DNA from: a virus
Reading direction: 5' to 3' (one strand)
Virus record (IMG/VR): IMGVR_UViG_3300016445_000001
Length of the DNA stretch: 64,000 nt
A program made the position numbers and the translations under genes. The notes beneath the pieces were generated by a model. The model had not been told where the DNA came from, ran no database searches, and saw only the letters and a program-made list of their open reading frames with translations. Each line of letters opens with the position of its first letter. Within the stretch, counting starts at the first letter, position 1. Positions 8,456 through 57,933 of the stretch are shown one piece after another.

Positions 8456-8920
8456 ATGAAGATCCGTACCCTGATCGCCGCCGTCTGCACCGGAGGCGCG
8501 CTGCTGTTTGCCGCGCCCGCGGTCGCATCGGCGGCACCGGTGGCTGGCCCGTCCAGCCACGCCACGTTCCTTGCCTCCGCGCCCGGCCGGCAGAGCTGCA
8601 CGCCGGGCGCGATCGGCACCGACGTCTACTGGCGACAGCCCGGCAGCGTCACCGTCTGGTGGAAGTCCAAGGCCACGCCGACCGACGGCTGCGCCTGGAT
8701 CGCCCCCGAGGCCCAGGACAGCGGCGGCCACGACACCTACGGTGGCAAGATCCACTATGACAACGGCGTGCAGTCCAAGGCCACCGTGTTTGACCAGGGC
8801 TACCTGGGCAAGGGCTGGGTGGTCGAGTGGACCGGCGCGAGCTGCTGGAAGCAACGGCTGTACCCCACGCAGACGGCGTGGCAGCGGCGGACCAACAGCT
8901 ACTGTTCCGGCCTGCCCTAA
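8456..8920 (+). CDS. secreted protein of unknown function (Sec signal peptide)
   Basis: MKIRTLIAAVCTGGALLFAAPAVASA|AP is a typical signal peptide. Four Cys in the mature part. RBS AGAGGAG. Bracketed by hairpins. Confidence 0.7.
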   Translation: MKIRTLIAAVCTGGALLFAAPAVASAAPVAGPSSHATFLASAPGRQSCTPGAIGTDVYWRQPGSVTVWWKSKATPTDGCAWIAPEAQDSGGHDTYGGKIHYDNGVQSKATVFDQGYLGKGWVVEWTGASCWKQRLYPTQTAWQRRTNSYCSGLP

Positions 8921-9105
8921 CCGGCCCCGCCCCGAGCGCCGCTCTCCCCCGGGAGGGCGGCGCTTGGCGTTGCCAGCAGCAGCCGGATCGCCACCCGGAA
9001 GCCGTCGGTATTGGAGATCCCCTCCTCACGGCACCTGGCCAGGAACGGCAACCACAGCTCGTCCTCGATCCGGCCCGCGCTGCGGTTGGGCGTCTCGGCC
9101 ATCAT
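8917..9105 (-). CDS. small DNA-binding-like protein (ribbon-helix-helix candidate)
   Basis: 62 aa. GRIEDELWLPFLARCREEGISNTDGFRVAIRLLL resembles the strand-helix-helix layout of CopG/Arc-type proteins. Divergent from the operator-like site at 9135-9148. Confidence 0.4.
   Translation of the reverse strand: MMAETPNRSAGRIEDELWLPFLARCREEGISNTDGFRVAIRLLLATPSAALPGESGARGGAG
8935..8964. terminator. stem-loop between convergent genes (about 12 bp, one G-U pair)
   Basis: AGCGCCGCTCTCCC..GGGAGGGCGGCGCT. Overlaps the 3' end of the minus-strand ORF 8917..9105. Confidence 0.45.
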
Positions 9106-9134
9106 CAGCTCCCCGGCGCTACAGTAGGTATGTG

Positions 9135-9148
9135 GCTGTAAGTACAGG
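9135..9148. promoter_or_regulatory. operator-like near-palindrome gCTGTAAGTACAGG
   Basis: Core TGTAAGTACA recurs at 43564-43577 and 43583-43596, and inverted at 57337-57350. Lies in the divergent intergenic region 9106-9176. Confidence 0.6.
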
Positions 9149-9176
9149 GCAGCGGGAGCCCGTGCTTCCCGGGAGC

Positions 9177-9824
9177 GTGAGCGCCGCGGACAGGGCGGTC
9201 GGCGTGGTCAGCGTCGGTGCCACCGTGGCCGCCCTGGTGCTGTCCTATCGGAACCTCCTTGACTTTGCCACGGCAACGATCTACAAGATGCCGCTGGCCC
9301 TGATCTTTCCATTGATCATTGACTCGTTCGTGGTCTACGGGGAGCTGCGCCTCTACAGCGCCACCTGGCGCAAGGAGGACAACTGGATCAAGGCCAGGAT
9401 GTGGGCGATCACCATCGGCGGGCTGGCCGCCTCAGTGCTGGCCAACGGGTGGAAGTACGAGCACTCACCAAGATCATTCTGGCTCGCTGCGGCAGCGGCC
9501 CCGCTCGCCGCAGCGATTGGCCTGGGCGTCGGGCTCGGGCTGGTGAAGCGGAACGCGCAAGGGGCTGATCACTCCAAGCAGGAACAGCAGGGCATCCCCG
9601 CTGGTGCAGCCGAGCCCCGGTCGGTGGCGGCAGCACGCCCTGTGTCCGCAGACACTAGCCCGGCCCGGCGTCCAGCCGGCAAGGCGGACCCGGACCTGGT
9701 GGCCAAGCTACTCGCCGACCGGCGCGAGGGGCTCCCCCTCGGGCGGGTGAGGGTGGTCGAGCGGCACGGCGTCACCGAGCATGCGGCGCGGACCGCGCTG
9801 CGCGAGCTGAACGGAAGCGCATGA
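9177..9824 (+). CDS. DUF2637-like integral membrane protein
   Basis: GTG 9177 after GGGAG (alternative GTG 9162). VLSYRNLLDFA...LIFPLIIDSFVVYGELRL pattern and four TM segments are typical of DUF2637 proteins of actinomycete mobile elements. Confidence 0.6.
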   Translation: MSAADRAVGVVSVGATVAALVLSYRNLLDFATATIYKMPLALIFPLIIDSFVVYGELRLYSATWRKEDNWIKARMWAITIGGLAASVLANGWKYEHSPRSFWLAAAAAPLAAAIGLGVGLGLVKRNAQGADHSKQEQQGIPAGAAEPRSVAAARPVSADTSPARRPAGKADPDLVAKLLADRREGLPLGRVRVVERHGVTEHAARTALRELNGSA

Positions 9825-10051: not shown

Positions 10052-10272
10052 GGATCACACATCCCGGCCTGGGCCAGCGCCCTGATCTCGGCGGGGGTGA
10101 CCGTCACCTCGCCCCCGCCGTCCAGCTCCACCGTGATGTGCCGCGGCGGCTGGCCGCCCGCCGCGTGGTGCCAGTCCATCGTCACCTCGCCCATCGACCA
10201 GTCCTGAACGTCCAGCAGGACGCGCCCCCTGCCGTGGGGAGTCTCCACGCGGTCGCCTGGCAGGAACTGCAT
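10048..10272 (-). CDS. hypothetical small protein co-transcribed with the GntR regulator
   Basis: ATG 10272 overlaps the GntR TGA by 1 nt. 74 aa (MQFLPGDRVETPHGRGRVLL...). Confidence 0.55.
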   Translation of the reverse strand: MQFLPGDRVETPHGRGRVLLDVQDWSMGEVTMDWHHAAGGQPPRHITVELDGGGEVTVTPAEIRALAQAGMCDP

Positions 10273-11012
10273 CACATCTCCAAGATCAGCCGAGCCCGGT
10301 CCCCGGGCCAGCGCGTCACCGACACGAACACCACGCCGCCAGCATGCAGCCCGGTCCGGTGCTCGACAAGCAGCGGCACCCCTGGCGGGATCTCCAGCAC
10401 GCCCGTCTCGGCGTGGTCGGGCATCCGCGTCTCGATCTCCACCGTGATCGTGTCCGGCGACTGGCCGATGCCGGACAGGTAGGGGATCGAGCCCTCGGGG
10501 ATGTCCTCGGGGTAGGCCAGCTTGGTGCCCCGGGCCAGCACCCGCGGGAACGTCCACGTGACCAGGTTGTGCGGCTTGCCGTCCACCAGCCTGAGCTGCT
10601 CGCGGGTGATCACCGGCGTGGCCATCGAGAGGCCCAGCCGCCGCGCCAGCTCGCCCGCCTCGTGGGAGCGCACCCACAGCCGCACCCCCGGGACGTGGCC
10701 CAGGTCGGCGACGTCGTGCGCCCAGGAGTCAGCACCGGGCGTGGGGGACTGGTGGTTGGCCACCCGGGAGGCCGGGCGGGTGACGTGGACCTGGAGCAGC
10801 ACCCGCGGGTCCGCCACCTGGCGGCGGGCACCTCCTGCCCCGCGCACCAGCCCCCGGTTCTCCAGGTAGCCCAGCGCCTGGCGGACGGTAGACCGGGCGA
10901 GCTGGTGCTCCCGCGCCAGATCCGCCTCCGACGGCAGCAGGTCACCCGGCTTGAGTTCACCGCTGGTGATCTGCGCCTCGATCAAAGCCGCGAGATCCGA
11001 CCACTTGGGCAT
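10272..11012 (-). CDS. GntR-family transcriptional regulator, HutC subfamily (wHTH plus UTRA-like domain)
   Basis: LPSEADLAREHQLARSTVRQALGYLENRGLV is a canonical GntR wHTH. About 170-aa C-terminal effector-type domain. GGGAGG RBS before ATG 11012. Confidence 0.88.
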   Translation of the reverse strand: MPKWSDLAALIEAQITSGELKPGDLLPSEADLAREHQLARSTVRQALGYLENRGLVRGAGGARRQVADPRVLLQVHVTRPASRVANHQSPTPGADSWAHDVADLGHVPGVRLWVRSHEAGELARRLGLSMATPVITREQLRLVDGKPHNLVTWTFPRVLARGTKLAYPEDIPEGSIPYLSGIGQSPDTITVEIETRMPDHAETGVLEIPPGVPLLVEHRTGLHAGGVVFVSVTRWPGDRARLILEM

Positions 11013-11025
11013 GGAATCCCTCCCG

Positions 11026-11049
11026 CCTGTAGGGACTTGTACGAACAGG
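11026..11049. promoter_or_regulatory. degenerate operator-like copies CCTGTAGGGACTTGTACGAACAGG
   Basis: 11036-11049 matches CCTGTACTTACAGG at 11/14 and 11026-11039 matches at 10/14. Lies in the divergent region between the GntR gene and the 11095 operon. Confidence 0.3.
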
Positions 11050-11094
11050 AAGCGTACACTGACGGTCTGACCACACACAGTGAGGGAGGCGGCG

Positions 11095-29557: not shown

Positions 29558-30490
29558 CTAGGCATAACTTCCCCCGATCGCTGGCCAGGCGTTGCGCCAC
29601 TTGATCTGGCAGGTGGCCGTGCCGGTGTAGTCGGTGCCGGTGAGGCGGACCACGGTCGCGCCCTGCGGCAGTCCGAGGGAGATCATCGGGCTGCCGTTCA
29701 GCAGCCCGGCCACGCTGGCGGTGCCGATCAGCGCGGTGCGCGCCCACGGCCGGGTGTCGAGCACCAGGGACTGGCCAGCAGGGAGCACCCCCTGGTAGCT
29801 GATGGCGATGGCGGTGTTGACGTAGGCGATGCCGGGGAAGCTGATCGGCCCGTTGAAGGTGATCACCGGCCAGGTGGCGATCGGCCCGCTGTTGACCAGC
29901 GCGTTCTGCTGGTAGTTCAGGTAGGCGGACGCCCACTGGAACGGCGGGGTGACCGGGAACGTGAAGGTGCCCAGGTAGGACGGCACACTGGTGAGGGTGA
30001 GGATGCTCTCGGTGTCGGCGTACCAGTTGCAGTCGGCGGCCTGGAACTGGGCGCTGAACGGGACCGCGCCCTGGTTGGCGGTGCCGTAGGTGGGCTGGAT
30101 CTTGCGCCCGCGCCCGTAAGCCACCCGGACCACGTTGGACACCGGGTAGTAGGCGCGGAGCTTCTGCATCTGCCCGTTGACCATCCGGGCGGCCGGGTCG
30201 AGCCACTTGCCGGCTAGCTGGCTGAACGCATCGAGCGCGGCCTTGCCGTTGGCGTTGGCGTAGGCGACCCCGGTCTGCGTGACCACCATCCCGGGCAGGG
30301 TGTCCACACCGAACAGCACGCCGTCATGCCCGACTACCGGGGTGTCCTGGGTGGTCATCGAGCCGGTGTCGGCGAGGGTGTTCTGCACCAGGCAGGTGGT
30401 GCCGTAGCCGTAGACCACGGTGTTCGGGTCACCGCCTGGCATGTCGGTGCCGATGCTGTACTGGCCGAGGGCCAGCACCGGGTCAGCCAT
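29558..30490 (-). CDS. distal tail protein (Dit) candidate
   Basis: 310 aa, immediately downstream of the tape measure gene with overlapping start and stop. Confidence 0.6.
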   Translation of the reverse strand: MADPVLALGQYSIGTDMPGGDPNTVVYGYGTTCLVQNTLADTGSMTTQDTPVVGHDGVLFGVDTLPGMVVTQTGVAYANANGKAALDAFSQLAGKWLDPAARMVNGQMQKLRAYYPVSNVVRVAYGRGRKIQPTYGTANQGAVPFSAQFQAADCNWYADTESILTLTSVPSYLGTFTFPVTPPFQWASAYLNYQQNALVNSGPIATWPVITFNGPISFPGIAYVNTAIAISYQGVLPAGQSLVLDTRPWARTALIGTASVAGLLNGSPMISLGLPQGATVVRLTGTDYTGTATCQIKWRNAWPAIGGSYA

Positions 30491-33400
30491 CAGCTCACCC
30501 CCGTGTATGCCTGCTGCCGGCTCACCCGCAGCATCCAGCTCAGCTCTTGCAGCGCCTGGGTGACGGTGGTGCCCTCGGGCAGCGTCAGGTGGACGTCACG
30601 CAGCAGCGAGTGCCCGCCACCGCCCTGCTTGGAGAGCTGGTGGGCGGCCTCGGCCATCGCCACGAACGCGGAGGACTGCACCGGGTTGAGCACGGCCTCG
30701 GGCCGGCCGGTGGCGTTGGCGTTGACGTTGAGCCCCGGCAGCAGCCACCCGCCGCTGTCCATGAACCGCTGGTAGGCCCCGGAGGTGTAGGTGGTCCAGG
30801 GGGAGAACCCGCCGGCCGCGCGCCACTTGGCCACCGCGGCGCGGGCGTTGTTGAGCGGGTTGAGCAGCGCCTGGTTGATGCCGAACTGCGGCTCGCTGTT
30901 GCCCGGGGTGATCTGCCACAGCCCCCAGCCGGTGGTGGCGTAGGGCTGCCCCTGCTGGATCGCGCCGGGCCGGAACCCGGCCTCGGCACCGGTGATCGCC
31001 GCGGCGATGTGGGCGACCATCCCGCCAGGCCCGCCGGCCTGCATCCAGTAGCCCTCGATCTGCCGCAGGTTCTGCGGGCCGAGCCCAACACCGCCGAGCC
31101 CGCCTGGCGGGATGCCAGTGCCCATCAGCGGCATGCCGTGCAGCGGCATCAGCGTCGGCCCCTTGACGCCCTCGGGGCCGCCCTGGCTGATCACCTGGGT
31201 GGGGGTGCGGATGATCGCCACGTGGCCAGGCGGCGGGCCGCCGCCCGCGGAGACGTAGAACGCCAGGCCGCCCGGCACCGGGCCGGACCGCTTGGCCCAG
31301 GCGTATTGCGCCTCGGACGTCCGCGGCGGGTGGATGCCGAAGTGGTTGTAGACGTCCTCCACGAACCCCGAGCAGTCATCGCCGCTCAGTGAGGTGCCGC
31401 CCCACGTGTAGGGGATCTTGCCGAGGTAGCTCATGGCGAACTTGACGATCGCGTTGCCGTCGGCACCCATCCCGCCGTGCCCGATCAGCCACTTGACCGC
31501 ATCGGCGACCGCGGTCTTGCCCATCCCCATCAGCATTTGGGCCATCTCGGCGGTGGCCCCGCCGACCAGGTTGGTGCCGAGCATGTTCATGATCGCGTTG
31601 GTCAGCGCGGCGGTGTTGCCGGTGGCGACCGCGGCGGTGATCTTGCCGACGTCCTCGGCCTTGTGCCACAGCCCGGAGAAGAAATGCCCGATGCCGCCGA
31701 GCAGGCCCGGCCCGTGCTGGCCCACGTTGTGCGCCGGCCGCTGGGCGTACCGGGCGGACGGGTCGAGCGCGCCGAACCGGCCGCCGGCCTGGTAGCCCGG
31801 CACGCCGACCGCGCGGAACACGTCGGCGAGCATGCCGCTGTGCTCCTTGGACACCACCGTCTCGCCGGACTCCAGCAGCGCCGGGTGCCGGTCGCCGCCG
31901 CCGTAGCCGGGGAGCCGCCCGCCGCGGGCCAGGCCCATCGGGTGGACCGCGCCGATCGGCCTGCCGAGCCCGAGCTTGGAGGTGATCCAGTCGAATGCTG
32001 AGATCAGCCCGTCCAGCACGTGGTCAATCACGAACTTGACCGGGCTGGCTACCACGTTCTCGATGTCCTGCCAGTGCTGCCCGATCCAGCGGACCGCCGT
32101 GCCGAACGCATTGGGCAGATCCTGGGTGAACACCTGCTCCATCGGCTGCACGATGTTGTTGTCGATGAAGTTCCACGCCGCCTGAGCTGCGCCGGTGATG
32201 TCATCCCACGCCTGTTTCCAGTGGTCGCGCACGAACTCGACCGCCAGCCGGATCAGCGTCAGGCCGGGCACCAGCCACTGCCCCCACCCGTGGGTGAGGA
32301 AGTTCCAGGCGTCCATCGTCCAGCTCTTGATGTCGTTCCACACCTGGTGCCAGTGGGTGGACAGGAAGCCGATCACGGCGATCAGCCCGAGCACCGCGGT
32401 GCCTACCGGGTCGATGGCTGCCGCCACGGCGATCAGCACCGGGATCAGCAGGTGGAAGTGAGCCATCCAGGTGACGACAGCAGCGACTACCCCGACCACC
32501 CAGCCGATCAGCTTGGCGAGCAGGACCACCAGCGGGGCGAGGGCATCGAGGATCGCCACCAGGGCGGTGGCGAGCCCGGCCGCGAACATCTGCGCCAGCA
32601 CGTTGATCACGGGCACGAGCTGCTGGACGATCTTGAGGAGCGGAGGCAGCAGCGCCTCGGTGACCTTGACCAGCGGCGGGACCAGCGCCGACACCACCCG
32701 GACCAAGATCATCACAGCGCCGTCAGCGAGGGCACCGATCATCCGCATCAGCGGCGGGATGAACGGCGCGAGCTGGGTCACCAGGGCATTGATCAGGTTG
32801 GCCAGCGGCCGGGCCAGGGACTCCAGGGCATCCGCAAAGACGTTCCAGATGGTGCCGCTGTTCTCCAGCACGTTGAACACGCTGGCCAGCACCTTGGCCA
32901 GGGCACCAAAGGTGGGGGCAAGATCGGCGATCAGGTGGGCGACCGGGATCAGCATGGACATCAGATCCTGCAAGATCGCCCCGGCCAGCTCGGCGAGGAT
33001 CTTGCCCACCAGCAGCAGCGGCGGCTCAAGGATCTTGATGGTCTGCGCAAAGGCGACGATCACCGGGGCCAGCGCCCGCGCCATGATCGCGCCTACCCGG
33101 CCGAGGAGGACCAGGATGCCGCCGAGCGCCTGGAACAGCGCCTTGAGAACGGTCATCGAGGGACCGACGGCAGGGGCCATCACGGCGAAGAACCGCCCGA
33201 TGGACTGGCCGAGCCCGCCCAGGATTCCGGCGAACTCGTGCATAAAGGGCAGGCTGGCCTTGGTGATCGTGGTCAGCCCCGGCAGGATGTTCTTGACCAG
33301 CAGCAGCAGCCCGGTGGTGAGCTGAGCGAACCCCGGCCCGCTGATCCTGGCCAGGTTGCCCAGCAGCGGCAGGATGGCCCGGATGCCACCGGTCAGCGCC

Positions 33401-34329
33401 CGCACAAACGGCTCGACCACGGTCATGGACTGCTGGAAGAACTTGCGCAGCGGGCCGAACAGGGACTCGACCATCGGGACGATCTGGCGCAGCGGCTTGG
33501 CCAGCATCGGCAGCAGGGAGCCGGTGAAGTTCTGCCAGTCGTTTTGCAGCCCGGTGATCGAGCGGAACACCGACGCGCCACCCGGCGCGGACCGCTGGGC
33601 GAACTGCATCGCGCCCTGCATCTGCCGCTGGGCCTGCTGGCGCTGCTGCGGGGTGACCGCCATCTGCATGGCGTTCTGTGCCTGCTGGTACGCCTGGAGC
33701 GCCGGCCCGAGGTTCTGGCTGATCGCCTGGCTGCCCAGGAACCCGGCACCCGCCAGCCCGGCCGCGCCGCCGCCCGCCACGCCGAGCACGCCGCCGAGCG
33801 CGGGCAGCAGGGAGCTGGCCGCTGCGCCGCCGCCGATCCACATCGCCGGGGTGGCCCCCATGCCCAGGAACCCAGGACCGGCCGCGCTGGCGGTCTGCCC
33901 GGCCGCCCCGGGAGCCGCGCCAGCGGCCCCGCCGCCTCCTCCTCCTCCGAACAGGCCGCCGATCATGCCGGGGATGCCCGCTGCCCCGCGCAGCATGCCG
34001 CTGCCGCCGAGCATGCCGGCCAGGACACCGCCGCGGCGGCGCACGTCGTTGGTGAGCTGCTCGTCCAGGCGGCGGTAGGAGTCGCGGATACGGCCGAACG
34101 CCGACTCGTCCACCCGCGGGGTGATCTTCACCTCGCGCTCGTGGGCTACCTCGTCCAGCTTGGCGTCAGCGGCGGCGACGTCGCCGGGCGGGACTTCCGG
34201 CTCGATCTTGGCGGTGCGTGTCTTGGCCGCAGCGTCACCGGCCGTGGAGGCAGCCTTGAGCTTACGGTAGAACTCGCTGTCCTCCAGGTCGAGGCGAGCG
34301 ACGATGGTGCCTGCGTCAAAGGCCATCAC
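30490..34329 (-). CDS. tape measure protein with NlpC/P60-like and lytic transglycosylase-like C-terminal domains
   Basis: 1279 aa with a central run of hydrophobic/helical repeats. YTWGGTSLSGDDCSGFV...GHVAI (NlpC/P60) and GWGLWQITPGN (SLT-like). Confidence 0.9.
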   Translation of the reverse strand: MMAFDAGTIVARLDLEDSEFYRKLKAASTAGDAAAKTRTAKIEPEVPPGDVAAADAKLDEVAHEREVKITPRVDESAFGRIRDSYRRLDEQLTNDVRRRGGVLAGMLGGSGMLRGAAGIPGMIGGLFGGGGGGGAAGAAPGAAGQTASAAGPGFLGMGATPAMWIGGGAAASSLLPALGGVLGVAGGGAAGLAGAGFLGSQAISQNLGPALQAYQQAQNAMQMAVTPQQRQQAQRQMQGAMQFAQRSAPGGASVFRSITGLQNDWQNFTGSLLPMLAKPLRQIVPMVESLFGPLRKFFQQSMTVVEPFVRALTGGIRAILPLLGNLARISGPGFAQLTTGLLLLVKNILPGLTTITKASLPFMHEFAGILGGLGQSIGRFFAVMAPAVGPSMTVLKALFQALGGILVLLGRVGAIMARALAPVIVAFAQTIKILEPPLLLVGKILAELAGAILQDLMSMLIPVAHLIADLAPTFGALAKVLASVFNVLENSGTIWNVFADALESLARPLANLINALVTQLAPFIPPLMRMIGALADGAVMILVRVVSALVPPLVKVTEALLPPLLKIVQQLVPVINVLAQMFAAGLATALVAILDALAPLVVLLAKLIGWVVGVVAAVVTWMAHFHLLIPVLIAVAAAIDPVGTAVLGLIAVIGFLSTHWHQVWNDIKSWTMDAWNFLTHGWGQWLVPGLTLIRLAVEFVRDHWKQAWDDITGAAQAAWNFIDNNIVQPMEQVFTQDLPNAFGTAVRWIGQHWQDIENVVASPVKFVIDHVLDGLISAFDWITSKLGLGRPIGAVHPMGLARGGRLPGYGGGDRHPALLESGETVVSKEHSGMLADVFRAVGVPGYQAGGRFGALDPSARYAQRPAHNVGQHGPGLLGGIGHFFSGLWHKAEDVGKITAAVATGNTAALTNAIMNMLGTNLVGGATAEMAQMLMGMGKTAVADAVKWLIGHGGMGADGNAIVKFAMSYLGKIPYTWGGTSLSGDDCSGFVEDVYNHFGIHPPRTSEAQYAWAKRSGPVPGGLAFYVSAGGGPPPGHVAIIRTPTQVISQGGPEGVKGPTLMPLHGMPLMGTGIPPGGLGGVGLGPQNLRQIEGYWMQAGGPGGMVAHIAAAITGAEAGFRPGAIQQGQPYATTGWGLWQITPGNSEPQFGINQALLNPLNNARAAVAKWRAAGGFSPWTTYTSGAYQRFMDSGGWLLPGLNVNANATGRPEAVLNPVQSSAFVAMAEAAHQLSKQGGGGHSLLRDVHLTLPEGTTVTQALQELSWMLRVSRQQAYTGVS

Positions 34330-38908: not shown

Positions 38909-39361
38909 TTACCTCGCTCCTGCTCGTGCAGGCGCACGTGCAGCACGGGCAGCGCGCGGCGGGATGTCCTCCGCGTCCACCTCGGCGGGCACGCCCTGCC
39001 CGGCTGTCTCGTCACCGGGCGCGGGCTCGTTCGCCTCGGGCGGCTCCAGCACCTGGACGGTGGAGCTGCCGGGCGGGTCCGGCCGTGCGCCCTGCGGCGG
39101 GCCTGGCCTGCCGATCACCTGGCCGGTGCGCGGGTTGACCGCGATGCCGAACAGTTGCTTGGGGTGGACGCGCGGCAGCGGGTCGCCGGACTCCTTGGCC
39201 GGGCGGATCATCGCCATCGCCCGGCGTGGCGGCCGGAACAGGTCGGCGGTGTCATCGTCCAGCTCGACCGTTTCGCCGGCCATCACCAGGTCGCACTCCT
39301 TGTTGGCGTCACCCTTGCGGGGCACCGAGAGGTTGACCACTGCCTGGTAGAGAGACATCAC
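38909..39361 (-). CDS. hypothetical protein
   Basis: 150-aa ORF downstream of the capsid gene, overlapping its stop. Confidence 0.5.
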   Translation of the reverse strand: MMSLYQAVVNLSVPRKGDANKECDLVMAGETVELDDDTADLFRPPRRAMAMIRPAKESGDPLPRVHPKQLFGIAVNPRTGQVIGRPGPPQGARPDPPGSSTVQVLEPPEANEPAPGDETAGQGVPAEVDAEDIPPRAARAARAPARAGAR

Positions 39362-40269
39362 ACCCCCGACAGCAGGACGATCGCCAGGGGCTGGTCCAGC
39401 CCGAGGGCGGCTGCCCGCTGAGTGTCGGACCGGAACGTCTTGCGGGGCTCGTCCCGGTAGAGGGGGCCTGCCATGAACGGCAGCTCGTCCGCGTAGAACC
39501 CGCAGCGGTTGCGCTGCATGACGATCGCGTTGCCCGCGGGGATCTGGCGGCTGACCATCACATCGAGGGTGAGGATCTTCTGCGGGAGCGTGCCGGTGTA
39601 GAGCAGGTTCTCGCTGGCGATGTCACCCACGTAGGGAGCCGCGAACGTGTTGCTTTGCAGCAGCGTGTTCTTGGTCCCGTGGTTGATGATCAAGGTGTCG
39701 GCCTCAAAGCCGAGCCACTGCGTCAGCCCCGACGGGGAGAACGTGGCGGCGTTCTCCACCAGGTAGCACGCCTGTGCCAGGTCGGCCCGGATCGTCGCGC
39801 CCGCGCTCGCCCAGGTGTTGGCGACGGCGAGGGTCTGGATCGAGGCGTTGGCCACCACCGCGCTGTAAAAGGCGGTGTTCCACGAGTAGACCATCGTGTT
39901 CTTGACCTGGAGGAGCTGCCTCGTCACCGGGTCGATGGTCTGCCGGCGGCGCATCTCGTCCGACACCATGATCGCCATCGCGCGCTCGTGGCTGAACACC
40001 ACGCGCGGGATGCCGATGGACGTCGGCACGATCGGCACCTCGGCGAACTCGGCGCGGATCTCGGGGAAGTCATCGGCGTAGAGCGGAGTGGATTCGGCGT
40101 ACCGGACCGCGCCGCTCGGGGTGTTCCCGCCATCGCGCAGCACAGAGTCGATCACGAACTCGTTCTGCGTGATGTCGAGAATGAGCTGCGGAATGACCAG
40201 CGGGTCTTTCAGCAGCTCGTTGACGGTAACTCTCGGGCCATCGCTGTACCCGCGTGCGGCGACCGGCAT
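39358..40269 (-). CDS. major capsid protein
   Basis: 303 aa behind GAGGAGCTGA. Lies after the protease/scaffold and decoration genes. Length and composition fit an HK97-fold capsid protein. Confidence 0.75.
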   Translation of the reverse strand: MPVAARGYSDGPRVTVNELLKDPLVIPQLILDITQNEFVIDSVLRDGGNTPSGAVRYAESTPLYADDFPEIRAEFAEVPIVPTSIGIPRVVFSHERAMAIMVSDEMRRRQTIDPVTRQLLQVKNTMVYSWNTAFYSAVVANASIQTLAVANTWASAGATIRADLAQACYLVENAATFSPSGLTQWLGFEADTLIINHGTKNTLLQSNTFAAPYVGDIASENLLYTGTLPQKILTLDVMVSRQIPAGNAIVMQRNRCGFYADELPFMAGPLYRDEPRKTFRSDTQRAAALGLDQPLAIVLLSGV

Positions 40270-40282
40270 CGGTCAGCTCCTC

Positions 40283-40777
40283 TCAGAAGATCCTGGCCCG
40301 GCCCAGGAAGAACGACGATGCTCCGATGCCGCCGATCGGCTGGGTGAGCTGGCCGGCAGCCACGCCTCCGGGGTGTGTGCAGCGGCCGATAACCTGGCCG
40401 AACGTGCCCGCGCCGACCGTGACCACGGTGCCGTTGGCCCCGGCGATCAGCAGCGTGCCCGGGACCACCGCGCCGGCGTACCAGACCCAAATGTCAACGG
40501 GGCCGTGGTAGACGGCGGTGAAGTCATCGAGCACCGAGATGTCAAGCTGCGGCTCGCCGTAGGTGTTGGTTGGCGGCGGGATCTGGCTGGCCAGCACGTT
40601 GGCGTCCTTGGCCGCCACGCCCAGCACGTTGCTCGACCCAGCCGCGCAGGGCTTCACCGTCAAGTCGGTGGTGCCTGCGGTCTGCGTCGTGTTCTCGACA
40701 AGCTGGCCGCCGAAAGTCAGCGCGCTGACCTGGTAGCTAGCCGGTCCCTGCTTGTAGTGCGGGAGAACCGCGGTCAC
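40283..40777 (-). CDS. head decoration protein candidate (DUF2190-like)
   Basis: 164 aa. Pattern NVLGVAAKDA...GAVVPGTLLIAGANGTVV...GQVIGRC resembles DUF2190 capsid-cement proteins. Confidence 0.5.
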   Translation of the reverse strand: MTAVLPHYKQGPASYQVSALTFGGQLVENTTQTAGTTDLTVKPCAAGSSNVLGVAAKDANVLASQIPPPTNTYGEPQLDISVLDDFTAVYHGPVDIWVWYAGAVVPGTLLIAGANGTVVTVGAGTFGQVIGRCTHPGGVAAGQLTQPIGGIGASSFFLGRARIF

Positions 40778-42233: not shown

Positions 42234-43462
42234 GAGCTGGCCTTGGCCGCCATGTTCTCGGCCCGCTTGGCGAACGCGAGCGCCCGGTCTGGCGGGAAGC
42301 CGCGGGCGATCAGCTTCTTGCGGATCGCCTCACCCTTGGCCCCGAGCCCGTTGCTGTTGCCGCTGTCGCCGTTGGCCCCGCTGGTGGTCCGCGGCCCGTC
42401 CCCGCTGCCGTTGGACGGCGTGGCCAGCGCGCGGATCGCCGGGATGCCGAGCCGGCGCATCAGGTCAGACTGCGCGGGCGGCGGCTGGAGCGGCTCACCG
42501 CGGACCACGCGGTCAGCGGTGGGCCGGTGCTGCGGGGTGAGCGCGCCGCGGTTGTGGACGCCGATCAGCTCCAGCAGCGCGCCGCGCTGGCGGGCGTGCG
42601 GCTGGTAGTCCTGGCCAGCCCGGGAGGCTCGCCACCCACCGTCATCGCCGTGCCGGATGCGGCCGATCTCGCCGCCGCCGCGGCGGTGCCGGACCACGGC
42701 CGAGCCGTCCTCGGGATCGCGGCTGATCACCAGGTCGTAGGGGCTGGTGACGGGCAGGATCGTGTCCACGGTGAACTCCAGGGCTGGGCCGGTGTTGGAC
42801 GCGGCCCACGACTGCTTGAGGGCCTTGGACTTGCCGAACCGGGAGGCGGTGCGGCGCAACAGCCGGGCCACCGCGGCCCGCCGTGCCGGGGACTTCACCC
42901 GGCCGATCGCCTGGCGGGCCTTGTCCCACTGCCGCGGGGAAGTGACCGGGAACCCGTGCGGGGCTCCGGGGCTCGGCGGTGCGATGGCCAGGCCGCGCTT
43001 GAATGCGGACGCCCGGCCGCCCTTTGTCTCCGACGCCGGCCCCTTGGCGAGCAGGATCTCCAGCAGCGGGTGCCCGTTGCTGAGCCGCCAGGCACCCTCG
43101 CCCTTGACGATCTCGCTGCCCTGCACGGCTGAGGCGGCGGCCTTGCGCACGTGGGTGATCTCGGCGGCCAGGCCGCCTTTCATCAGCACCTTGCCGATGT
43201 TGTGGTCGTAAACGCCGCGGACCGTGGTGCCGCTCGGGGTGCGCCCTTCCACCACCTGCTTGTGCAGGCTGACGGCGTTGCCGCGGGCCAGCCAGTTGCG
43301 CTTGGCGGTCGCTGATGCTGTGTCGTGGGCCTTGGCGCTGGCCGCTGCTTTGGTGGCGGCAGACCAGTGGTCGCCGTCACCGCCTCGGTGGCCTGCGTCC
43401 CACGCCGCCCAGTCCAGGTCGATCACCCTGGAGGACGTCACATCCCCGCCTCCGGTCGCCAT
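42230..43462 (-). CDS. hypothetical protein (first gene after the tandem operator-like sites)
   Basis: 410-aa ORF. Alternative GTG start at 43441 lies behind GGAGG. Confidence 0.55.
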   Translation of the reverse strand: MATGGGDVTSSRVIDLDWAAWDAGHRGGDGDHWSAATKAAASAKAHDTASATAKRNWLARGNAVSLHKQVVEGRTPSGTTVRGVYDHNIGKVLMKGGLAAEITHVRKAAASAVQGSEIVKGEGAWRLSNGHPLLEILLAKGPASETKGGRASAFKRGLAIAPPSPGAPHGFPVTSPRQWDKARQAIGRVKSPARRAAVARLLRRTASRFGKSKALKQSWAASNTGPALEFTVDTILPVTSPYDLVISRDPEDGSAVVRHRRGGGEIGRIRHGDDGGWRASRAGQDYQPHARQRGALLELIGVHNRGALTPQHRPTADRVVRGEPLQPPPAQSDLMRRLGIPAIRALATPSNGSGDGPRTTSGANGDSGNSNGLGAKGEAIRKKLIARGFPPDRALAFAKRAENMAAKASS

Positions 43463-43563
43463 TCAGGGACCGGCGCACGCGGGGACTTGCGCGCCGACTC
43501 GTCTAGCTCGGCATGCTACGCGCTGTTTTCGTGGTGCGGAAAGGGCAGGGCGAGAATTGAGTG

Positions 43564-43596
43564 CCTGTAAGTACAGGTGAGGACTGTAAGTACAGG
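43564..43596. promoter_or_regulatory. two tandem operator-like sites CCTGTAAGTACAGGTG / aCTGTAAGTACAGGTG (19-bp register)
   Basis: Read directly at 43564-43577 and 43583-43596, in the 138-bp gap upstream of gene 42230..43462. Confidence 0.6.
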
Positions 43597-43600
43597 TGTC

Positions 43601-44086
43601 CTATTCGTCTTGCAGCGGGATCTCGGGCGGCGGTGCGATGCCCTTGGCCGCCATCGCGCTGGACATACCGGAGTAGTCCGTTGCGAGGTTGGCATAGACG
43701 CTGTAGAGGAGGGTGATGAACACGCCAACCACCAGCCAAAAGTCCTGATGCCAGAAGAACAGCCAGACGATCACCGGGAAGTTCAGCAGCCAGTAGAGGA
43801 CGCCGATCCGGTGGACGTGGAACTGGGTGTCGGGGTCTGTCTCCAGCTTGGCCACGGTGGCGCGGCGCTGCTCCAGGGTCGGGATGCGCGGCTTGACCAG
43901 CATCTGGTAGGCCACGCTGATCAGCGCCACGCCGGCGATGCAGGCGACCACCAGGCCCGCGGTGCGCCCGGCGTCCTTGTCGGTGACCGCGGCGGCGACC
44001 AGGAACCCCAGCAGCGCGTAGCGCAGCCAGTGGGTCCTGATCACCGCCCGGACGGTGGACGGGCGCTCAGCCGATGGGCTGGCCAT
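43601..44086 (-). CDS. polytopic membrane protein
   Basis: 161 aa, four hydrophobic helices. Confidence 0.65.
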   Translation of the reverse strand: MASPSAERPSTVRAVIRTHWLRYALLGFLVAAAVTDKDAGRTAGLVVACIAGVALISVAYQMLVKPRIPTLEQRRATVAKLETDPDTQFHVHRIGVLYWLLNFPVIVWLFFWHQDFWLVVGVFITLLYSVYANLATDYSGMSSAMAAKGIAPPPEIPLQDE

Positions 44087-51709: not shown

Positions 51710-52032
51710 TTGGCCGGCGGCTCGGGCAGCGGCACATCCACGGTCGCCTTGCCGCCCTGGATCGGGGTGAGCGCGGTCTGGATCGGCAGCAGGTCCGGCC
51801 GGTGGGTGTGCGGTGCCAGGTAGGCCGCGGCGGTGTGCATCAGCCAGGCCACGCCCATCGGCAGGAACGCCAGCAGCGGGCCGGGGATGCCGTCGTGCCA
51901 GGCCGGTATCCAGTACGTCAGGCCCCACACGATCAGGCCGGTGATGATGCCGGCCCAGCTCCCGATGGCGACCTTGGTTTCGACCAGGCTGTTGGGCGGC
52001 AGGAGGCTGCCGAGCGGATCGGGTGCGGTCAT
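51706..52032 (-). CDS. small membrane protein (2-3 TM)
   Basis: 108 aa between the portal and MuF genes. Hydrophobic WAGIITGLIVWGL and LLAFLPMGVAWLM. Confidence 0.6.
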   Translation of the reverse strand: MTAPDPLGSLLPPNSLVETKVAIGSWAGIITGLIVWGLTYWIPAWHDGIPGPLLAFLPMGVAWLMHTAAAYLAPHTHRPDLLPIQTALTPIQGGKATVDVPLPEPPAK

Positions 52033-53639
52033 GCCATCCTCCCCGGAGGTGGGGTCATCGGCGGCCCGCCAGGTGGCCGCGGCGGCTGGGCCTGCTGGCC
52101 GAGCCCGGGAGCTGGCGGGGTTGTGGGCAGGCCGCCGCCAGGGCGAGGCGGCGGCCCGCCGGCACGGGCGGCGGCTGCCTGGGCCATGCCCAGGCCCGCA
52201 GACGCCATCCCGTTGAGCGCGCCGAGAGTCCCGGCCGCCTGCTGCGGCATGCCGGGCGGCGCGCTAGCCATGAGCTGCTCGGCGCGCTGGTTGGCGGTGG
52301 ACACCAGCGCCTGGTGTACCTGGTCCACATCGAGCTGGAGGATGGACGCCATCCGCTCGGTGATCAGGTCGAGCACGGTCAGGGGGATGTGCAGCGCCGG
52401 TGCGGCGCAGAGCTGGCCGAACAGCGTGAGGAGCGCCTGGATCTGCTCGTCTTGCAGCGGGCCGAACTTCCACGTCGGGTAGGCGGCGTTCACGCCGTAG
52501 TTGAGCATGATCAGCGGCCGGATCACGTCGTAGCTGATCGACTCGGCCATCTCCTTGGCCACCGCCTGGCGGCTCTTGAGGTAGAACGACGATTGATCCT
52601 GGCTGAGCGCGTAGGAGCCCCTGCCCCCGGTAGCCGAACCGGTGAGCGCCATGAACCCAGCCAGGACGCTGTGAGTCTGCCAGCTCTCCAGCCAGCCCAT
52701 CGCGGTCTGGAAGAACTCCCCGCCGTTGCTCGCGCCCTGGAGCACGTCGAACGCCTTCTGCCCCGTCTCCGGGTGGACCAGGCCGACCACGCCACTGCTC
52801 TTGAGCGAGGCGATGTCATCGGCGCGGGTGTTGGCCTCGGTGGGGTCGTTGCCGTAGACGATCGTGCGCGGCAGGGCGGTGTTCTCTAGGAAGTTGTACC
52901 AGAGAAAAAGGAGCTTCATCTTGGTCTGGTAGCACCAGTAGCTGATGTCCATTTCTGAGACACCGCTCATTGGCTCGCGGTGCTTGCCATTCACGTGGAC
53001 AAAGGACCGGATCTGCGGGATGTCCACATAACCGGGCACCTGCTGGTGCTTGCTGATCGTGTTGAGCTGGCCGCCAAACAGCCACACCTGCTGCCGGAAC
53101 CCATTCTTGGCACCGGTGCGGGCGCGATAGCGCGCCTGGCATGTCGCCGTCGGCCGGTAGGCGATCTTGTCATAGATCACCCGGCCGTCGGCATCGCGGA
53201 TCTTCCAGACCTTCTCAAAAAACGACTTGCGGTAAATCTGCGCGCTGGTGATCTGCCCGACGATCTCCGATATGGGCGTCTGCATTCCGCCCTCGGTGTC
53301 GGGGGTCATCAGCACCGACTGCACGAACTCGGCCTCGCCCTTGTCGTCTTTGGCCGGCACAATCGAGTAGTCCGCCTCGCGGATAGGCAGGGTGAGCACC
53401 ATCTCGACCGCGGAGCAGATCCCGTCCCGGCGAAACATCGCTTTCATGTCCCGGGTGGTCCACTCGCCGTAGTCGAATACGTCGCCCGCGCCGAAGTAGC
53501 CGAACAGCCGCTGCCCCATGTCGAACTGGGTGCCCAGCTCCTGGCCGAGCAGGTCCCGACGGGTCGCCTTTTTCAGGTCGGGGAATTGCAGGAGCCGCGC
53601 GGGCTCGCGCTCTGCCGCCGCCGCCATGATCACCGCCAT
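52029..53639 (-). CDS. portal protein
   Basis: 536 aa directly after the large terminase. Start region GTGATCATG embeds the TerL stop (alternative ATG 53627). Confidence 0.8.
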   Translation of the reverse strand: MAVIMAAAAEREPARLLQFPDLKKATRRDLLGQELGTQFDMGQRLFGYFGAGDVFDYGEWTTRDMKAMFRRDGICSAVEMVLTLPIREADYSIVPAKDDKGEAEFVQSVLMTPDTEGGMQTPISEIVGQITSAQIYRKSFFEKVWKIRDADGRVIYDKIAYRPTATCQARYRARTGAKNGFRQQVWLFGGQLNTISKHQQVPGYVDIPQIRSFVHVNGKHREPMSGVSEMDISYWCYQTKMKLLFLWYNFLENTALPRTIVYGNDPTEANTRADDIASLKSSGVVGLVHPETGQKAFDVLQGASNGGEFFQTAMGWLESWQTHSVLAGFMALTGSATGGRGSYALSQDQSSFYLKSRQAVAKEMAESISYDVIRPLIMLNYGVNAAYPTWKFGPLQDEQIQALLTLFGQLCAAPALHIPLTVLDLITERMASILQLDVDQVHQALVSTANQRAEQLMASAPPGMPQQAAGTLGALNGMASAGLGMAQAAAARAGGPPPRPGGGLPTTPPAPGLGQQAQPPRPPGGPPMTPPPGRMA

Positions 53640-55258
53640 GCTCGGACGTTGGCCCTCTCGGGCTGCCGGTCACCTGCCTGGGTGTCATCGGCGGGGGCGA
53701 AGCTGTCCAGGCTCCAATCGGTCCTAGCGTAGGCCCCGCCGTGCGGCTCGGCCAGCCTGCGGGCCGCCTGGCTGTAGCGCGGCTCGCCGACCAGGGCCAG
53801 CTCCTTCTGCGCCGCCCACTGCACCGGGGTGGCGTGCGCCGGCGGCCCGAACACCTTCTTGAGGAACGGGCTCAGCGCCCACACCAGCGAGTCCAGCCGG
53901 TCCGGCGACCGCTCGCCCGCCGCGCCGGTGAACGTCGCCATCTGGTCCTCCAGCTCGGGCATGTCCCGGTCTGGCACCAGGTGCTTGTTGCGGTCCTCGC
54001 GGGTCAGGTGGCAGTGCCGGACCAGGCCACCGTGCTGCTCGTACAGCGCGGACACCGGCTCGGCGCGGGTCCGCTTGGCCTGGCTGGCGTGGATCACCCG
54101 GTAGCGGACGCTGACCTTCATCTGCCGCACCACCTGGTCGAACGTGGCCTTGAGCCACGCGCCGCCGTGGTTCTTCTCGATGATCAGCTCGACCGGGCAG
54201 CCGGGGAACTCGCGCTCCAGCGCCAGCGCCCGCCTGATCACCCGGGTGGCGAACGGCACCGGGGCCTCCTGGCCGCCCCAGTTCTCCATCACCCACAGCG
54301 GCCACGGGTCCTCGGGCATGCCGAGCCCGGCCACCGTGTACGCCTGCTCGTCCGACGTCTCGCCGCCGTCGGAAGGGTCCACGCCGATCGTGATCTGGCG
54401 CAGCGCGGTGGGCAGCACCGGCACCCGGATCGAGTCGAGCAGCGAGCGCGTCCACAGGGCGTTGGCCACGTCATCGAGCAGCTCGCCCTCCAGCTCTTGC
54501 AGCTCCAGGCGGGTGCCCTGAGCTGCGCCAACGACGGCGCGCATGAACTCGGCGGACAGGTTGGCCGCATTGTCCACCGTGCGGAGCCGGCGGACAATGA
54601 CGCCGCCCTCGCCGGGGTCGTTGCGGATCAGCGCCCGGACCAGCTTGCGCGCCGGGCGGCTGGCCTTGGGCGTGCCGGTGGCGATGATCCGGCTGATGCC
54701 CTCGCGGACCGCGTAGCGCAGCGACTCGTTCCAGGCCGTCTCCCACTTCTCCCACAGCCCGATCTCGTCCGCCCAGGCCCCGCGGAGGTTGCGGCCCTGG
54801 ATGCGCAGCCCGCCCTCGGCCGCGGAGTCGATGTAGATCACGATCCCCGACCGCATCACCACCTGGCCGTAGGTCCGCCAGGCGTGGGCGACCAGCTTGG
54901 ACCGGCCGTCGCGCACCTCGGCCATCGAGGTGCCCAGCGCCCGCAGGATGCCCGCCTTGCCCTCCACGCACTTGGTCCAGGCGTCGGCGAACGTCGGGGC
55001 TATGATCCCGTACTCACCGCCCTGCGGGTCCGGGTCATCCTGCACCCACTCGGCCATCCCCTGGCTGCCCGCCCGCGTCTTGCCGCTGCCGCGCCCGCCC
55101 TGGAAGTAGGTCACCCGCCACGTCTCGGACAGCGCCGGCAGGAACTGCTCGGGGCGTCCCCTGCGGCCCTGCCGGTCGCCCATCCGCCACCGCAGCCGCG
55201 GGTCGGAGTAGCCGCCCTTCTCCCGGCCGCGGTAGACGCCGCGCAGCGGGTCAGGCAT
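53630..55258 (-). CDS. terminase large subunit
   Basis: Walker A GGRGSGKT, Walker B-like GAWADE, C-terminal nuclease-type acidic motifs (GVDPSDGG). 542 aa. Confidence 0.9.
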   Translation of the reverse strand: MPDPLRGVYRGREKGGYSDPRLRWRMGDRQGRRGRPEQFLPALSETWRVTYFQGGRGSGKTRAGSQGMAEWVQDDPDPQGGEYGIIAPTFADAWTKCVEGKAGILRALGTSMAEVRDGRSKLVAHAWRTYGQVVMRSGIVIYIDSAAEGGLRIQGRNLRGAWADEIGLWEKWETAWNESLRYAVREGISRIIATGTPKASRPARKLVRALIRNDPGEGGVIVRRLRTVDNAANLSAEFMRAVVGAAQGTRLELQELEGELLDDVANALWTRSLLDSIRVPVLPTALRQITIGVDPSDGGETSDEQAYTVAGLGMPEDPWPLWVMENWGGQEAPVPFATRVIRRALALEREFPGCPVELIIEKNHGGAWLKATFDQVVRQMKVSVRYRVIHASQAKRTRAEPVSALYEQHGGLVRHCHLTREDRNKHLVPDRDMPELEDQMATFTGAAGERSPDRLDSLVWALSPFLKKVFGPPAHATPVQWAAQKELALVGEPRYSQAARRLAEPHGGAYARTDWSLDSFAPADDTQAGDRQPERANVRAWR

Positions 55259-57268: not shown

Positions 57269-57336
57269 GGCAAGCTCCCCGGGCTAGCTCGTGGGCCAGG
57301 CTACAGGGCCTGGTGACGGTGTTGCCAGCGGGGAGT

Positions 57337-57350
57337 GTTGTACTTACAGT
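57337..57350. promoter_or_regulatory. operator-like site, inverted orientation (gTTGTACTTACAGt)
   Basis: Core TGTACTTACA is the reverse complement of TGTAAGTACA. About 70 nt upstream of ATG 57268. A CTACAGG half-site lies at 57301-57307. Confidence 0.5.
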
Positions 57351-57357
57351 GACGGGA

Positions 57358-57391
57358 ACGGGCGGCCCCCTGCATGCTGAGGGCCGCCCGT
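57358..57391 (-). terminator. stem-loop (11-bp stem ACGGGCGGCCC / GGGCCGCCCGT, 12-nt loop)
   Basis: Read directly, between gene 57523..57933 and the operator-like site. Confidence 0.45.
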
Positions 57392-57522
57392 GGGGGGGCT
57401 TCCACGCTAACACCAGCGGGGCCGTCTTGTAATTACCCGGGTGTCAGCCGCGCGTGGTAGGACGGGCTGACCGCACCCCGAGGGCCACCTCGCGCTGGCG
57501 GCCAGCCCGCCGTGTACTGACA

Positions 57523-57933
57523 CTACGGCGGGACCAGTTCCCACGCACCACCCGCGGTAAACACCAGCTCGCGCCCCGTGTCAGTGGCGCGCAGGATCTG
57601 GCCGGGCTGGGCGTCGGTCGAGTCGAGCGCCGCCTGCGCCAGGTAGGCGTCCGGGCACAGCCACACCTGGTGCGCCGCCTTGATGTCATCGAGCTGCTCG
57701 CGGAGGGACCGCAGCTCGCGGTCGGCCGCCGCGATCAGCAGCTCGGTCAGGTTCGCCAGGTTGTAGGCGACCGCATCGCGCAGGATCTCCGGGCTCAGCC
57801 GGGCCGTTTCCTGCCGCCAGGCGGCACAGATGGCGGCGTAGGACCGCGGGTCAGGACCGGGCACTGAGGGCCTGCCTGCGCCGGTGCTGGTGGAGGAGCT
57901 TGGACGGGGACCGGTGCCGGTGCAGGCGGCCAC
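57523..57933 (-). CDS. hypothetical protein (start uncertain)
   Basis: 136-aa ORF. Confidence 0.45.
   Translation of the reverse strand: MAACTGTGPRPSSSTSTGAGRPSVPGPDPRSYAAICAAWRQETARLSPEILRDAVAYNLANLTELLIAAADRELRSLREQLDDIKAAHQVWLCPDAYLAQAALDSTDAQPGQILRATDTGRELVFTAGGAWELVPP

Follow-up and report, generated by a model that had tools for sequence, protein, structure and literature searches.

A recurrent near-palindromic site between genes

The DNA analysed here, referred to as the window, is the whole 64,000-nucleotide stretch of IMG/VR virus record IMGVR_UViG_3300016445_000001, which has a G+C content of about 70% throughout and shows a siphophage-type late region on the minus strand. It carries a short, near-palindromic motif, a predicted operator, which lies at the heads of two virion operons and inside a small regulator module made up of genes for a GntR-family regulator, a DUF2637 membrane protein and a ribbon-helix-helix (RHH)-like protein. 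Relatives were compared as 20-kb fetched pieces, comprising 80 portal-centred loci together with module-centred loci, and are given below by their L numbers.

The 10-mer TGTAAGTACA was found as an exact match at 9137-9146(+), 43566-43575(+), 43585-43594(+) and 57339-57348(-), and all copies in the window lie between open reading frames (ORFs) with coding-type GC3. These four copies and their intergenic placement had been named in an original prediction made from the letters of the window alone, and both were confirmed by exact matching and by the gene calls. The same prediction had put the number expected by chance at about 0.1, which proved conservative: shuffling gave 0.01 expected copies, and none of 100 dinucleotide-preserving shuffles reached four.

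Copy 1 (9136..9147, plus strand, CTGTAAGTACAG) is located in the 71-bp gap between two divergent genes and falls between the start of the RHH-like gene (9105) and that of the DUF2637 gene (9177). The former (8917..9105, minus strand) encodes a protein of 62 aa; the latter (9177..9824, plus strand; PF10935, E=3e-8), a predicted target of the operator, has an alternative in-frame GTG start at 9162. Copies 2 and 3 (43565..43576 and 43584..43595, both on the plus strand) represent the promoter-proximal and the distal member of a tandem pair before the head-assembly operon; read on the coding (minus) strand, copy 2 is CTGTACTTACAG. The pair starts 5 nt past the stop of the ORF 43601-44086(-), about 100 nt ahead of the next gene, and shows the 19-bp register that had been described for it, including the TG after either member, which is part of a GGTG following both copies.

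Copy 4, CTGTAAGTACAA (57338..57349, minus strand), is found 70 nt upstream of the start (57268) of the Pro-rich gene heading the terminase/portal operon and 10 nt upstream of the -35-like hexamer CTGGCA, in the same layout as at position 4182 of L002. The count of four given originally holds for exact copies; a fifth, variant copy, TGTCAGTACA, had been missed at 57513..57522 on the minus strand. It directly follows the stop of the ORF 57523-57933(-), is placed in the loop of a CCGCCG/CGGCGG inverted repeat and is overlapped by a TAGTGT hexamer. The variant TGTCAGTACA is also present at the homologous place in L002 (3829) and is used intergenically in L085, L091 and L092.

When 40 unique instances from the window and the fetched loci are pooled, conservation is confined to the 12-mer C-TGTA[A/C]GTACA-G, the flanking C and G of which extend the two-fold symmetry. 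The near-palindrome proposed before thus stands as a symmetric 12-bp unit, and its 14-bp version, CCTGTAAGTACAGG, was over-extended: the outer bases of the 14-mer vary, it is exact only at 43564, has one mismatch at 9135 and at 43583, and has only the 10-mer and one flanking base in common with the copy at 57337. The motif varies least at its central four bases, which read AAGT at 28, ACGT at 6 and CAGT at 6 of the 40 unique sites, with a TA core in none. Six sites carry the perfect palindrome TGTACGTACA, and the usual form is one position of one half-site away from it.

Placement relative to genes was counted in the window and 94 non-redundant fetched loci, 1.18 Mb in all, cellular loci and loci without the module included. 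All 44 matches to TGTA[A/C]GTACA or TGTCAGTACA are intergenic, in DNA of which about 15% is intergenic. A crude gene caller had put five of the 44 in coding DNA, and the collections' own gene calls place all five between genes. Greater frequency between genes than inside them had been proposed as a check of the motif and is what was found; together with the shuffles, this placement rules out a chance origin. A similar sequence at 13248 of L082 was rejected as a copy, lying in coding DNA and being non-homologous. At gathering thresholds Rfam revealed no family in the window, and a full-text literature search for the 10-mer returned primers and unrelated sequences only.

Conservation, orientation and adjoining promoter-like elements

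A near-identity DNA search with 20 kb of the window against 50,697 phage records gave no match, and in a protein search the capsid protein showed at most 41% identity to any record of the phage collection; therefore, there is no annotated relative from which annotation could be borrowed. Portals 54-79% identical to that of the window are encoded by 80 IMG/VR contigs, which, from sample numbers alone, may mostly derive from soil metagenomes, and an 83.7-kb relative was binned with a metagenome-assembled genome (MAG) of the Streptosporangiaceae. Judged by these sequences, the window belongs to an uncultivated family of high-GC actinobacteriophages with genomes of roughly 58-84 kb and without a close cultured relative.

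Exact copies of the motif are present in 10 of the 80 portal-centred loci. Conservation in relatives had been expected, and the sites were indeed found at homologous positions in relatives with portals only 60-79% identical. The gap between the RHH and DUF2637 genes holds a copy in all 11 module-bearing lineages, each time some 20-60 nt ahead of the RHH start. In the gap that separates the p352 homologue from the downstream p410/p415/scaffold/capsid operon, the motif is present in L002, L016-L019, L027, L068 and L101, and the head-operon promoter of one phage sampled by two of the loci (L093/L101) shows the one-mismatch form CGTAAGTACA. Before the terminase operon the motif is found in L002, L016, L019, L027 and L032. 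In L002, which stems from a 75-kb contig, the tandem pair has the same 19-bp register with a different spacer sequence, so the spacing itself appears to be conserved.

The sites adjoin promoter-like elements. Hexamers of the form TANNNT stand at fixed offsets from the motif, compared with about 0.19 expected per offset: eight end on the first T of the motif, namely at early-gene promoters of L088, L091, L093, L095 and L096 and at an HNH-like gene in L019/L064, five begin 2 nt after the motif, and ten (5+5) are formed by the motif's own arm. The terminase operon of L016, L019 and L027 has CTGACT-N18-TAGNNT, with the motif occupying the spacer. In nine lineages, the spacing between a conserved leader of the head operon and a TAGCAT, TACGAT or TACCAT hexamer is constant; in L016-L019 and L101 the operator lies 2 nt upstream of this hexamer, and in the window and L002 the tandem operators lie 46-47 and 65-66 nt upstream of it.

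In the window, the -10-like hexamer of the head-operon promoter is TAGCAT at 43513..43518 on the minus strand, with the conserved distance to the leader. The predicted promoter of the terminase operon (57298..57328, minus strand) consists of CTGGCA, a 19-nt spacer and TAGCCT, and L002 shows CTGACT-N17-TAACAT at this position. Between the divergent genes, TACAGTA (9120..9126) gives predicted -10-like hexamers on both strands. TACAGT on the plus strand, which is kept in L082, is positioned 10-11 nt upstream of the operator and faces DUF2637; TACTGT on the minus strand faces the RHH gene, and the operator then covers the -35/spacer region of that promoter. Sigma-70 consensus scans found nothing at two of the three loci, among them that of 9120-9126. 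One candidate, TTGCCA-N17-TACAGT (57322-57350, plus strand), overlaps copy 4 and was discarded, pointing away from the operon and not being kept in L002. Since most sites overlap predicted core promoters, repression is suggested.

Orientation differs between relatives. In the tandem pair, the arms of which align in register, the two copies of the window have CT at the centre and the two of L002 have AG, and the RHH/DUF2637 copy of L085 is flipped relative to that of the window. These flips and the perfect palindromes argue against a strand-specific promoter element or RNA signal, and the flips fit a two-fold symmetric protein on duplex DNA. A directional element (recognised by a phage-specific sigma factor or polymerase, or else serving in RNA processing or as part of a leader) would be in keeping with the position at the heads of transcription units, with the eight copies directly after TANNNT, which would then cover the transcription start, and with the AG centre of 16 of the 21 TGTA-NN-TACA copies counted in the window together with the 80 portal-centred loci. 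The flips, however, occur at homologous sites, neither strand of the 10-mer contains TANNNT, and the distance to the conserved -10-like hexamer varies between lineages from 2 to 47 nt. Moreover, Rfam gave no match, and the 50 predicted proteins that were scanned included none recognisable as a phage RNA polymerase or sigma factor. We regard a directional element as highly improbable. The operator-like site that had been proposed as common to the RHH/DUF2637 region and the two virion operons is supported, both the flipping centre and the abutting TANNNT hexamers being as fits an operator on double-stranded DNA.

The motif is also linked to the module. In each of the 11 phage lineages reached via GntR or RHH homologues, the GntR, DUF2637 and RHH genes occur together, and the RHH and DUF2637 genes are kept as a pair in all module-bearing lineages. 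Large related contigs of at least 56 kb without the RHH signature (L024, L042, L045, L055, L057, L060, L062, L065, L071-L073 and L080) contain no motif within 10 kb of the portal gene. On the grounds of this co-occurrence, the binder is argued to be phage-encoded. A regulator or nucleoid protein of the host might instead recognise the motif, given that binding by either phage candidate is a prediction and that the 83.7-kb relative is linked to the Streptosporangiaceae MAG. Against a host factor stand the restriction of the motif to relatives with the module, inside which it sits in every one of the 11 lineages, and its absence around the portal genes of the contigs listed above; we consider a host factor very unlikely.

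In summary, these observations show the motif to be real: its copies lie strictly between genes, at conserved positions and in either orientation, next to promoter-like hexamers, and they occur together with the module. It is, as far as can be predicted, a real and conserved protein-binding site at promoters of this phage family, and we assign a probability of about 0.85 to its being the operator for a phage-encoded regulator of the GntR-DUF2637-RHH module.

Candidate regulators

The GntR and RHH-like proteins had both been named beforehand as candidates for the one regulator of the sites. For the 62-aa RHH-like protein as the binder, which is the candidate we favour, we see an even chance. 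Among 41 aligned homologues its N-terminal NRSAGR is invariant and a G-(I/L/M)-(S/T)-N-T turn is conserved. A profile search matched the RHH antitoxin VapB26 (5x3t, E=0.0066), which is also the best sequence match in the Protein Data Bank (PDB). An AlphaFold2 model built on the 41-sequence alignment shows residues 1-13 extended and helices at 14-27 and 31-44, with a block-mean pLDDT of 93-98 for residues 11-40. As modelled, the protein has what is expected of the RHH family, namely an N-terminal strand, two helices and a G-x-S/T-x turn before helix B, and an RHH-type fold is thereby supported. The N-terminal strand is the base-reading element of RHH proteins.

We propose that a dimeric regulator from the module would read the 12-bp, two-fold near-symmetric operator on double-stranded DNA. 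An RHH dimer would insert its invariant NRSAGR strand into the major groove at the operator's invariant centre. In the divergent region, the site would overlap the -35/spacer of the RHH promoter and the transcript start or leader of DUF2637, and the RHH protein would therefore repress itself and DUF2637. It would also occupy the heads of the terminase/portal operon (57339, 57513) and of the head-assembly operon (43566, 43585), tying the virion operons to the level of one small repressor.

The rival candidate is a HutC-subfamily GntR protein (10272..11012, minus strand), with a GntR winged helix-turn-helix and a UTRA domain. Two kinds of recognition helix occur among the GntR proteins: SRxT(V/I)R (type A) in the window, L083, L085 and L092, and A(R/L)(G/M)TAR (type B) in L088, L091 and L093-L096. 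The regions upstream of the GntR genes (window 11013-11079; L088 7467-7486; L093 at about 7905; L094 7906-7926; also L095 and L096) differ between the types as well: TGTAC-N10/11-GTACA before type-A genes and GTATAGAC-kind boxes before type-B genes. In the window, the inverted repeat TGTAC-N11-GTACA (11038..11058) lies in the 67-bp gap upstream of the GntR gene; its half-sites are the 5-bp half-sites of the operator, spread apart, and are kept in the type-A lineages (window, L083, L085, L092). A three-mismatch match at 11036-11049 was rejected as an autoregulatory copy after comparison with L082, in which only the spaced TGTAC/GTACA is conserved. Canonical HutC boxes (GTATAGAC, GTCTATAC, GTATATAC) are found upstream of the GntR gene in five of the six type-B lineages, and the sixth, L091, has split half-boxes only.

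The HutC operator consensus is NyGTMTAKACNy, in which GT and AC are 4 nt apart (PMC4494728). In NagR-DNA complexes, Arg48 reads G-4, position -5 is often T where Arg38 is unused, and the HutC dimer touches the central bases via the backbone only (PMC4333415). On this rival explanation the GntR protein binds as a winged-helix dimer reading GT at -4/-3 and AC at +3/+4; a small-molecule ligand of the UTRA domain would release it, and DUF2637, RHH and the virion operons would respond to a metabolite. We judge both the binding and this metabolite-responsive version doubtful. The necessary GntR and UTRA domains are present, a HutC-type regulator is encoded 1.1 kb away in the window, the motif resembles DasR dre and NagR sites in being a palindrome with GT and AC 4 nt apart (PMC4494728, PMC4333415), and the type-A half-sites described above stand upstream of the gene.

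A number of observations weigh against the proposed RHH circuit, several of them in favour of GntR. RHH and GntR genes co-occur in every one of the 11 motif-bearing lineages, so co-occurrence cannot separate the two candidates. The motif has the HutC GT-N4-AC register exactly, the type-A GntR of the window keeps the Arg48 equivalent without an Arg38 equivalent, which fits T rather than G at -5, and in L092 TGTCAGTACA occurs about 54 nt upstream of the GntR gene. As to the RHH-like protein itself, Pfam and PHROGs gave no match. Foldseek returned 20 matches, all with E>0.5 and none significant, 17 of which we take, by recognition, to be RHH proteins; these 17 include VapB26, eight CopG chains (rmsd 0.7-0.9 A over 32-34 residues), MazE, AmrZ, MatP and Arc. 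Two chromosomal RHH homologues (L097, L099) show no motif within 10 kb, which counts against the proposal, and no GntR or DUF2637 nearby. One type-B phage (L095/L100) lacks a motif copy before the terminase operon. Finally, the copies at the virion operons of the window precede the predicted -35, their centres lying near -52, -64 and -83; repression is not the sole reading there, and activation or a roadblock is possible.

Other evidence speaks against GntR. The central TA of HutC operators is replaced in the motif by an invariant (A/C)G. Type-B GntR proteins have a different helix and, in five of six lineages, canonical GTMTAKAC boxes of their own, yet their phages keep TGTA(A/C)GTACA; the motif is the same in type-A and type-B lineages and shows no co-variation with the recognition helix, and the type-B phage of L093/L101 has it at the head-operon promoter too, there with one mismatch. 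No intact copy lies upstream of the GntR gene of the window, and in every lineage the motif tracks the RHH/DUF2637 pair, even where this pair is inverted relative to GntR (L085). The RHH-like protein is favoured because its NRSAGR is invariant while the GntR recognition helix has two types with the motif unchanged, and because the centre of the motif is its most rigid part, which a HutC dimer would contact through the backbone only. We infer, then, that RHH rather than GntR binds, that regulation is negative and that promoters lie at the positions given.

The operator links, on sequence grounds, a small regulator module to the virion operons of an uncharacterised phage family. This is an ordinary mechanism of phage control, a repressor with several operators being standard phage biology, and it is the example that is new. 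It provides a testable regulon for widespread 58-84 kb high-GC phages, with one 12-bp operator, two candidate regulators, about five target sites and both virion operons, and the motif marks promoter positions in genomes in which promoters are hard to find. If the RHH-like protein is the binder, this would be a phage-wide RHH regulon in an actinobacteriophage, and a compact repressor-operator pair for high-GC hosts would be on offer. If the UTRA-domain GntR is involved, late-gene expression could respond to a metabolite, and a metabolite-responsive circuit of this kind is a possibility. More speculatively, and in our view rather unlikely, the module might be a two-tier ligand-sensing switch, possibly borrowed from actinomycete kil-kor plasmid circuits, in which GntR senses a host metabolite and sets the level of RHH, and RHH gates the terminase and head-assembly operons. 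Virion production would then be timed or held back according to host physiology, which would amount to a form of carrier-state or pseudolysogeny control that is not known from actinobacteriophages.

Related systems and further features of the genome

Arc and Mnt of Salmonella phage P22 (immI) are the classic RHH repressors of phages. They combine a small RHH gene beside a divergent promoter, repression of the own and the divergent gene, and a short near-palindromic operator over the promoters, an arrangement that the window would share as far as the analogy goes. They differ in acting at one locus each, on a 21-bp or 17-bp operator bound by a tetramer, whereas in the window a 12-bp site is present five times across 48 kb, with the heads of the virion operons among its positions. 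The RHH-like protein of the window reveals no detectable sequence relationship to Arc or Mnt, its best PDB match being VapB26 and not Arc. SvtR of Sulfolobus virus SIRV1 and F55 of SSV1 are RHH regulators of archaeal viruses. The window may be likened to them in that a virus-encoded RHH protein would act at its own promoter and at structural or late promoters, forming a small virus-wide regulon; compared by description only, they differ in belonging to archaeal viruses and promoters, in their operator sequences and in having no GntR partner.

Stoperators of Cluster A mycobacteriophages are asymmetric sites of 13-14 bp, present in 20-35 copies, which run in the direction of transcription and are recognised by a two-domain repressor that binds as a monomer. 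The resemblance suggested here is that of an actinobacteriophage with one short site in intergenic gaps, including those of late genes, through which one repressor silences distant units. The window, in contrast, has five near-palindromic copies, the orientation of which flips between relatives, and these are not stoperators as so defined. The kil-kor systems of Streptomyces elements, such as KorA/KorB of pIJ101 and KorSA of pSAM2, are mentioned as a lead only: in them, a Kor repressor of the GntR family is accompanied by another small repressor, the gene of which is transcribed divergently from that of a membrane protein. They belong to conjugative elements, not to viruses, and are likened by description only. 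HutC systems have been compared above; their operators differ from the motif in having TA in place of the invariant (A/C)G centre, and the motif stays constant when the GntR recognition helix changes. By analogy, the circuit would belong to a familiar class, that of P22 Arc/Mnt, the RHH regulators of archaeal viruses and the many-site repressors of actinophages.

A literature search on RHH proteins in actinophages found nothing relevant, nor did one on DUF2637, for which no relation to Kil or Spd proteins was established. When all of IMG/VR was scanned with the RHH signature NRSAGRI[ED], only three contigs proved to carry RHH relatives. The homologues of L097 (10001-10228) and L099 (10001-10138) have the same NRSAGRIE strand and occur in cellular contexts, among them isocitrate lyase, glutamine synthetase and ABC transporter genes and an actinomycete MAG contig of 334 kb. 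Both homologues overlap an upstream ORF at its end.

The minus-strand late region of the window comprises genes for the large terminase (53630-55258), a Mu-like portal (52029-53639), the scaffold (40283-40777), the major capsid protein (39358-40269) and the tape measure protein (30490-34329). A D5-type primase is encoded at 60358-61938. The first 1-15 kb form a plus-strand block of mostly unrecognisable genes, inside which the RHH-like and GntR genes lie on the opposite strand, with the DUF2637 gene between them. No integrase was recognised among the genes scanned in this phage of about 80 kb. Proteins 100% identical to the RHH-like protein (61 aa) and the portal (532 aa) of the window, with 98-99% of the length covered, are present in the collection on 112 contigs each. 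Among these contigs the longest has 141,270 nt, well above the approximately 80 kb of relative genomes, and the window phage may therefore be abundant and occur as a prophage or concatemer.

Two hairpins were noted near the operators. In the leader of the head operon (about 43441 to 43506), a CCGGTC-loop-GACCGG hairpin at 43452-43473(-) follows GGCGCG...CCCCGC and continues, at its 3' arm, into the first gene's ribosome-binding site, GGAGG. The stem is identical in nine lineages (L001, L002, L015-L019, L101 and the window), with loops of 4 to 10 nt. Masking of the ribosome-binding site or stabilisation of the mRNA are possible roles of the hairpin. The ORF has its first ATG (43462) inside the loop, and the gene probably starts at GTG 43441, 7 nt after the conserved GGAGG, matching the GTG ACG TCC start of L002. 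The second, G+C-rich hairpin, GGGCGGCCC-N12-GGGCCGCCC at 57358-57395, has no T-run and is located between copies 5 and 4 within the 254-bp gap before the terminase operon; it looks like a terminator or attenuator, and L002 displays a comparable element, GGCCCCGG...

The 161-aa ORF 43601-44086(-), which has the p352 gene on one side and the tandem operators directly downstream on the other, resembles an insertion specific to its lineage; tblastn found no homologues in the 80 portal-centred loci and L081/L082, and Pfam and PHROGs gave no match. In L001, two operator copies (10525 and 11092), 567 bp apart and upstream of the p352 homologue, are part of a directly repeated sequence of at least about 55 bp, which looks like a duplicated promoter-operator cassette.

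Among the boxes before GntR genes, GG is present at -5/-4 where there is an Arg38 equivalent (L088, L091) and TG in L093 and L096 without it; L094 and L095, also without it, do not follow this box pattern. A search of the window for canonical HutC boxes gave a single AT-core box, GCGTATATACGC at 59280-59291, which was not accepted as an operator, its counterpart in L002 belonging to origin-like AT-rich repeats. Other matches to GTNTANAC in the window are GTGTAGAC-type sequences at positions taken as coding and were likewise set aside. AT-rich stretches with short iterated units are found downstream of the primase region in L002 (1750-1960), L100 (1090-1355) and the window (about 59270-59320), for example GCTATAT and GCGCATAT in L002 and TCTCTATCTTC three times in L100; the window has the 12-bp palindrome GCGTATATACGC. 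These stretches may be replication origins.

In L019 (9560-9943) and L064 (about 1503), a reverse-oriented gene of 119 aa is inserted between the terminase and portal genes and, by eye, looks like an HNH endonuclease with paired CxxC and His motifs. It has its own TATGAT/TAGGCT hexamer fused to an operator copy (TATGATGTAAGTACA), followed by a ribosome-binding site and ATG; a mobile gene appears to have been placed under the same control.

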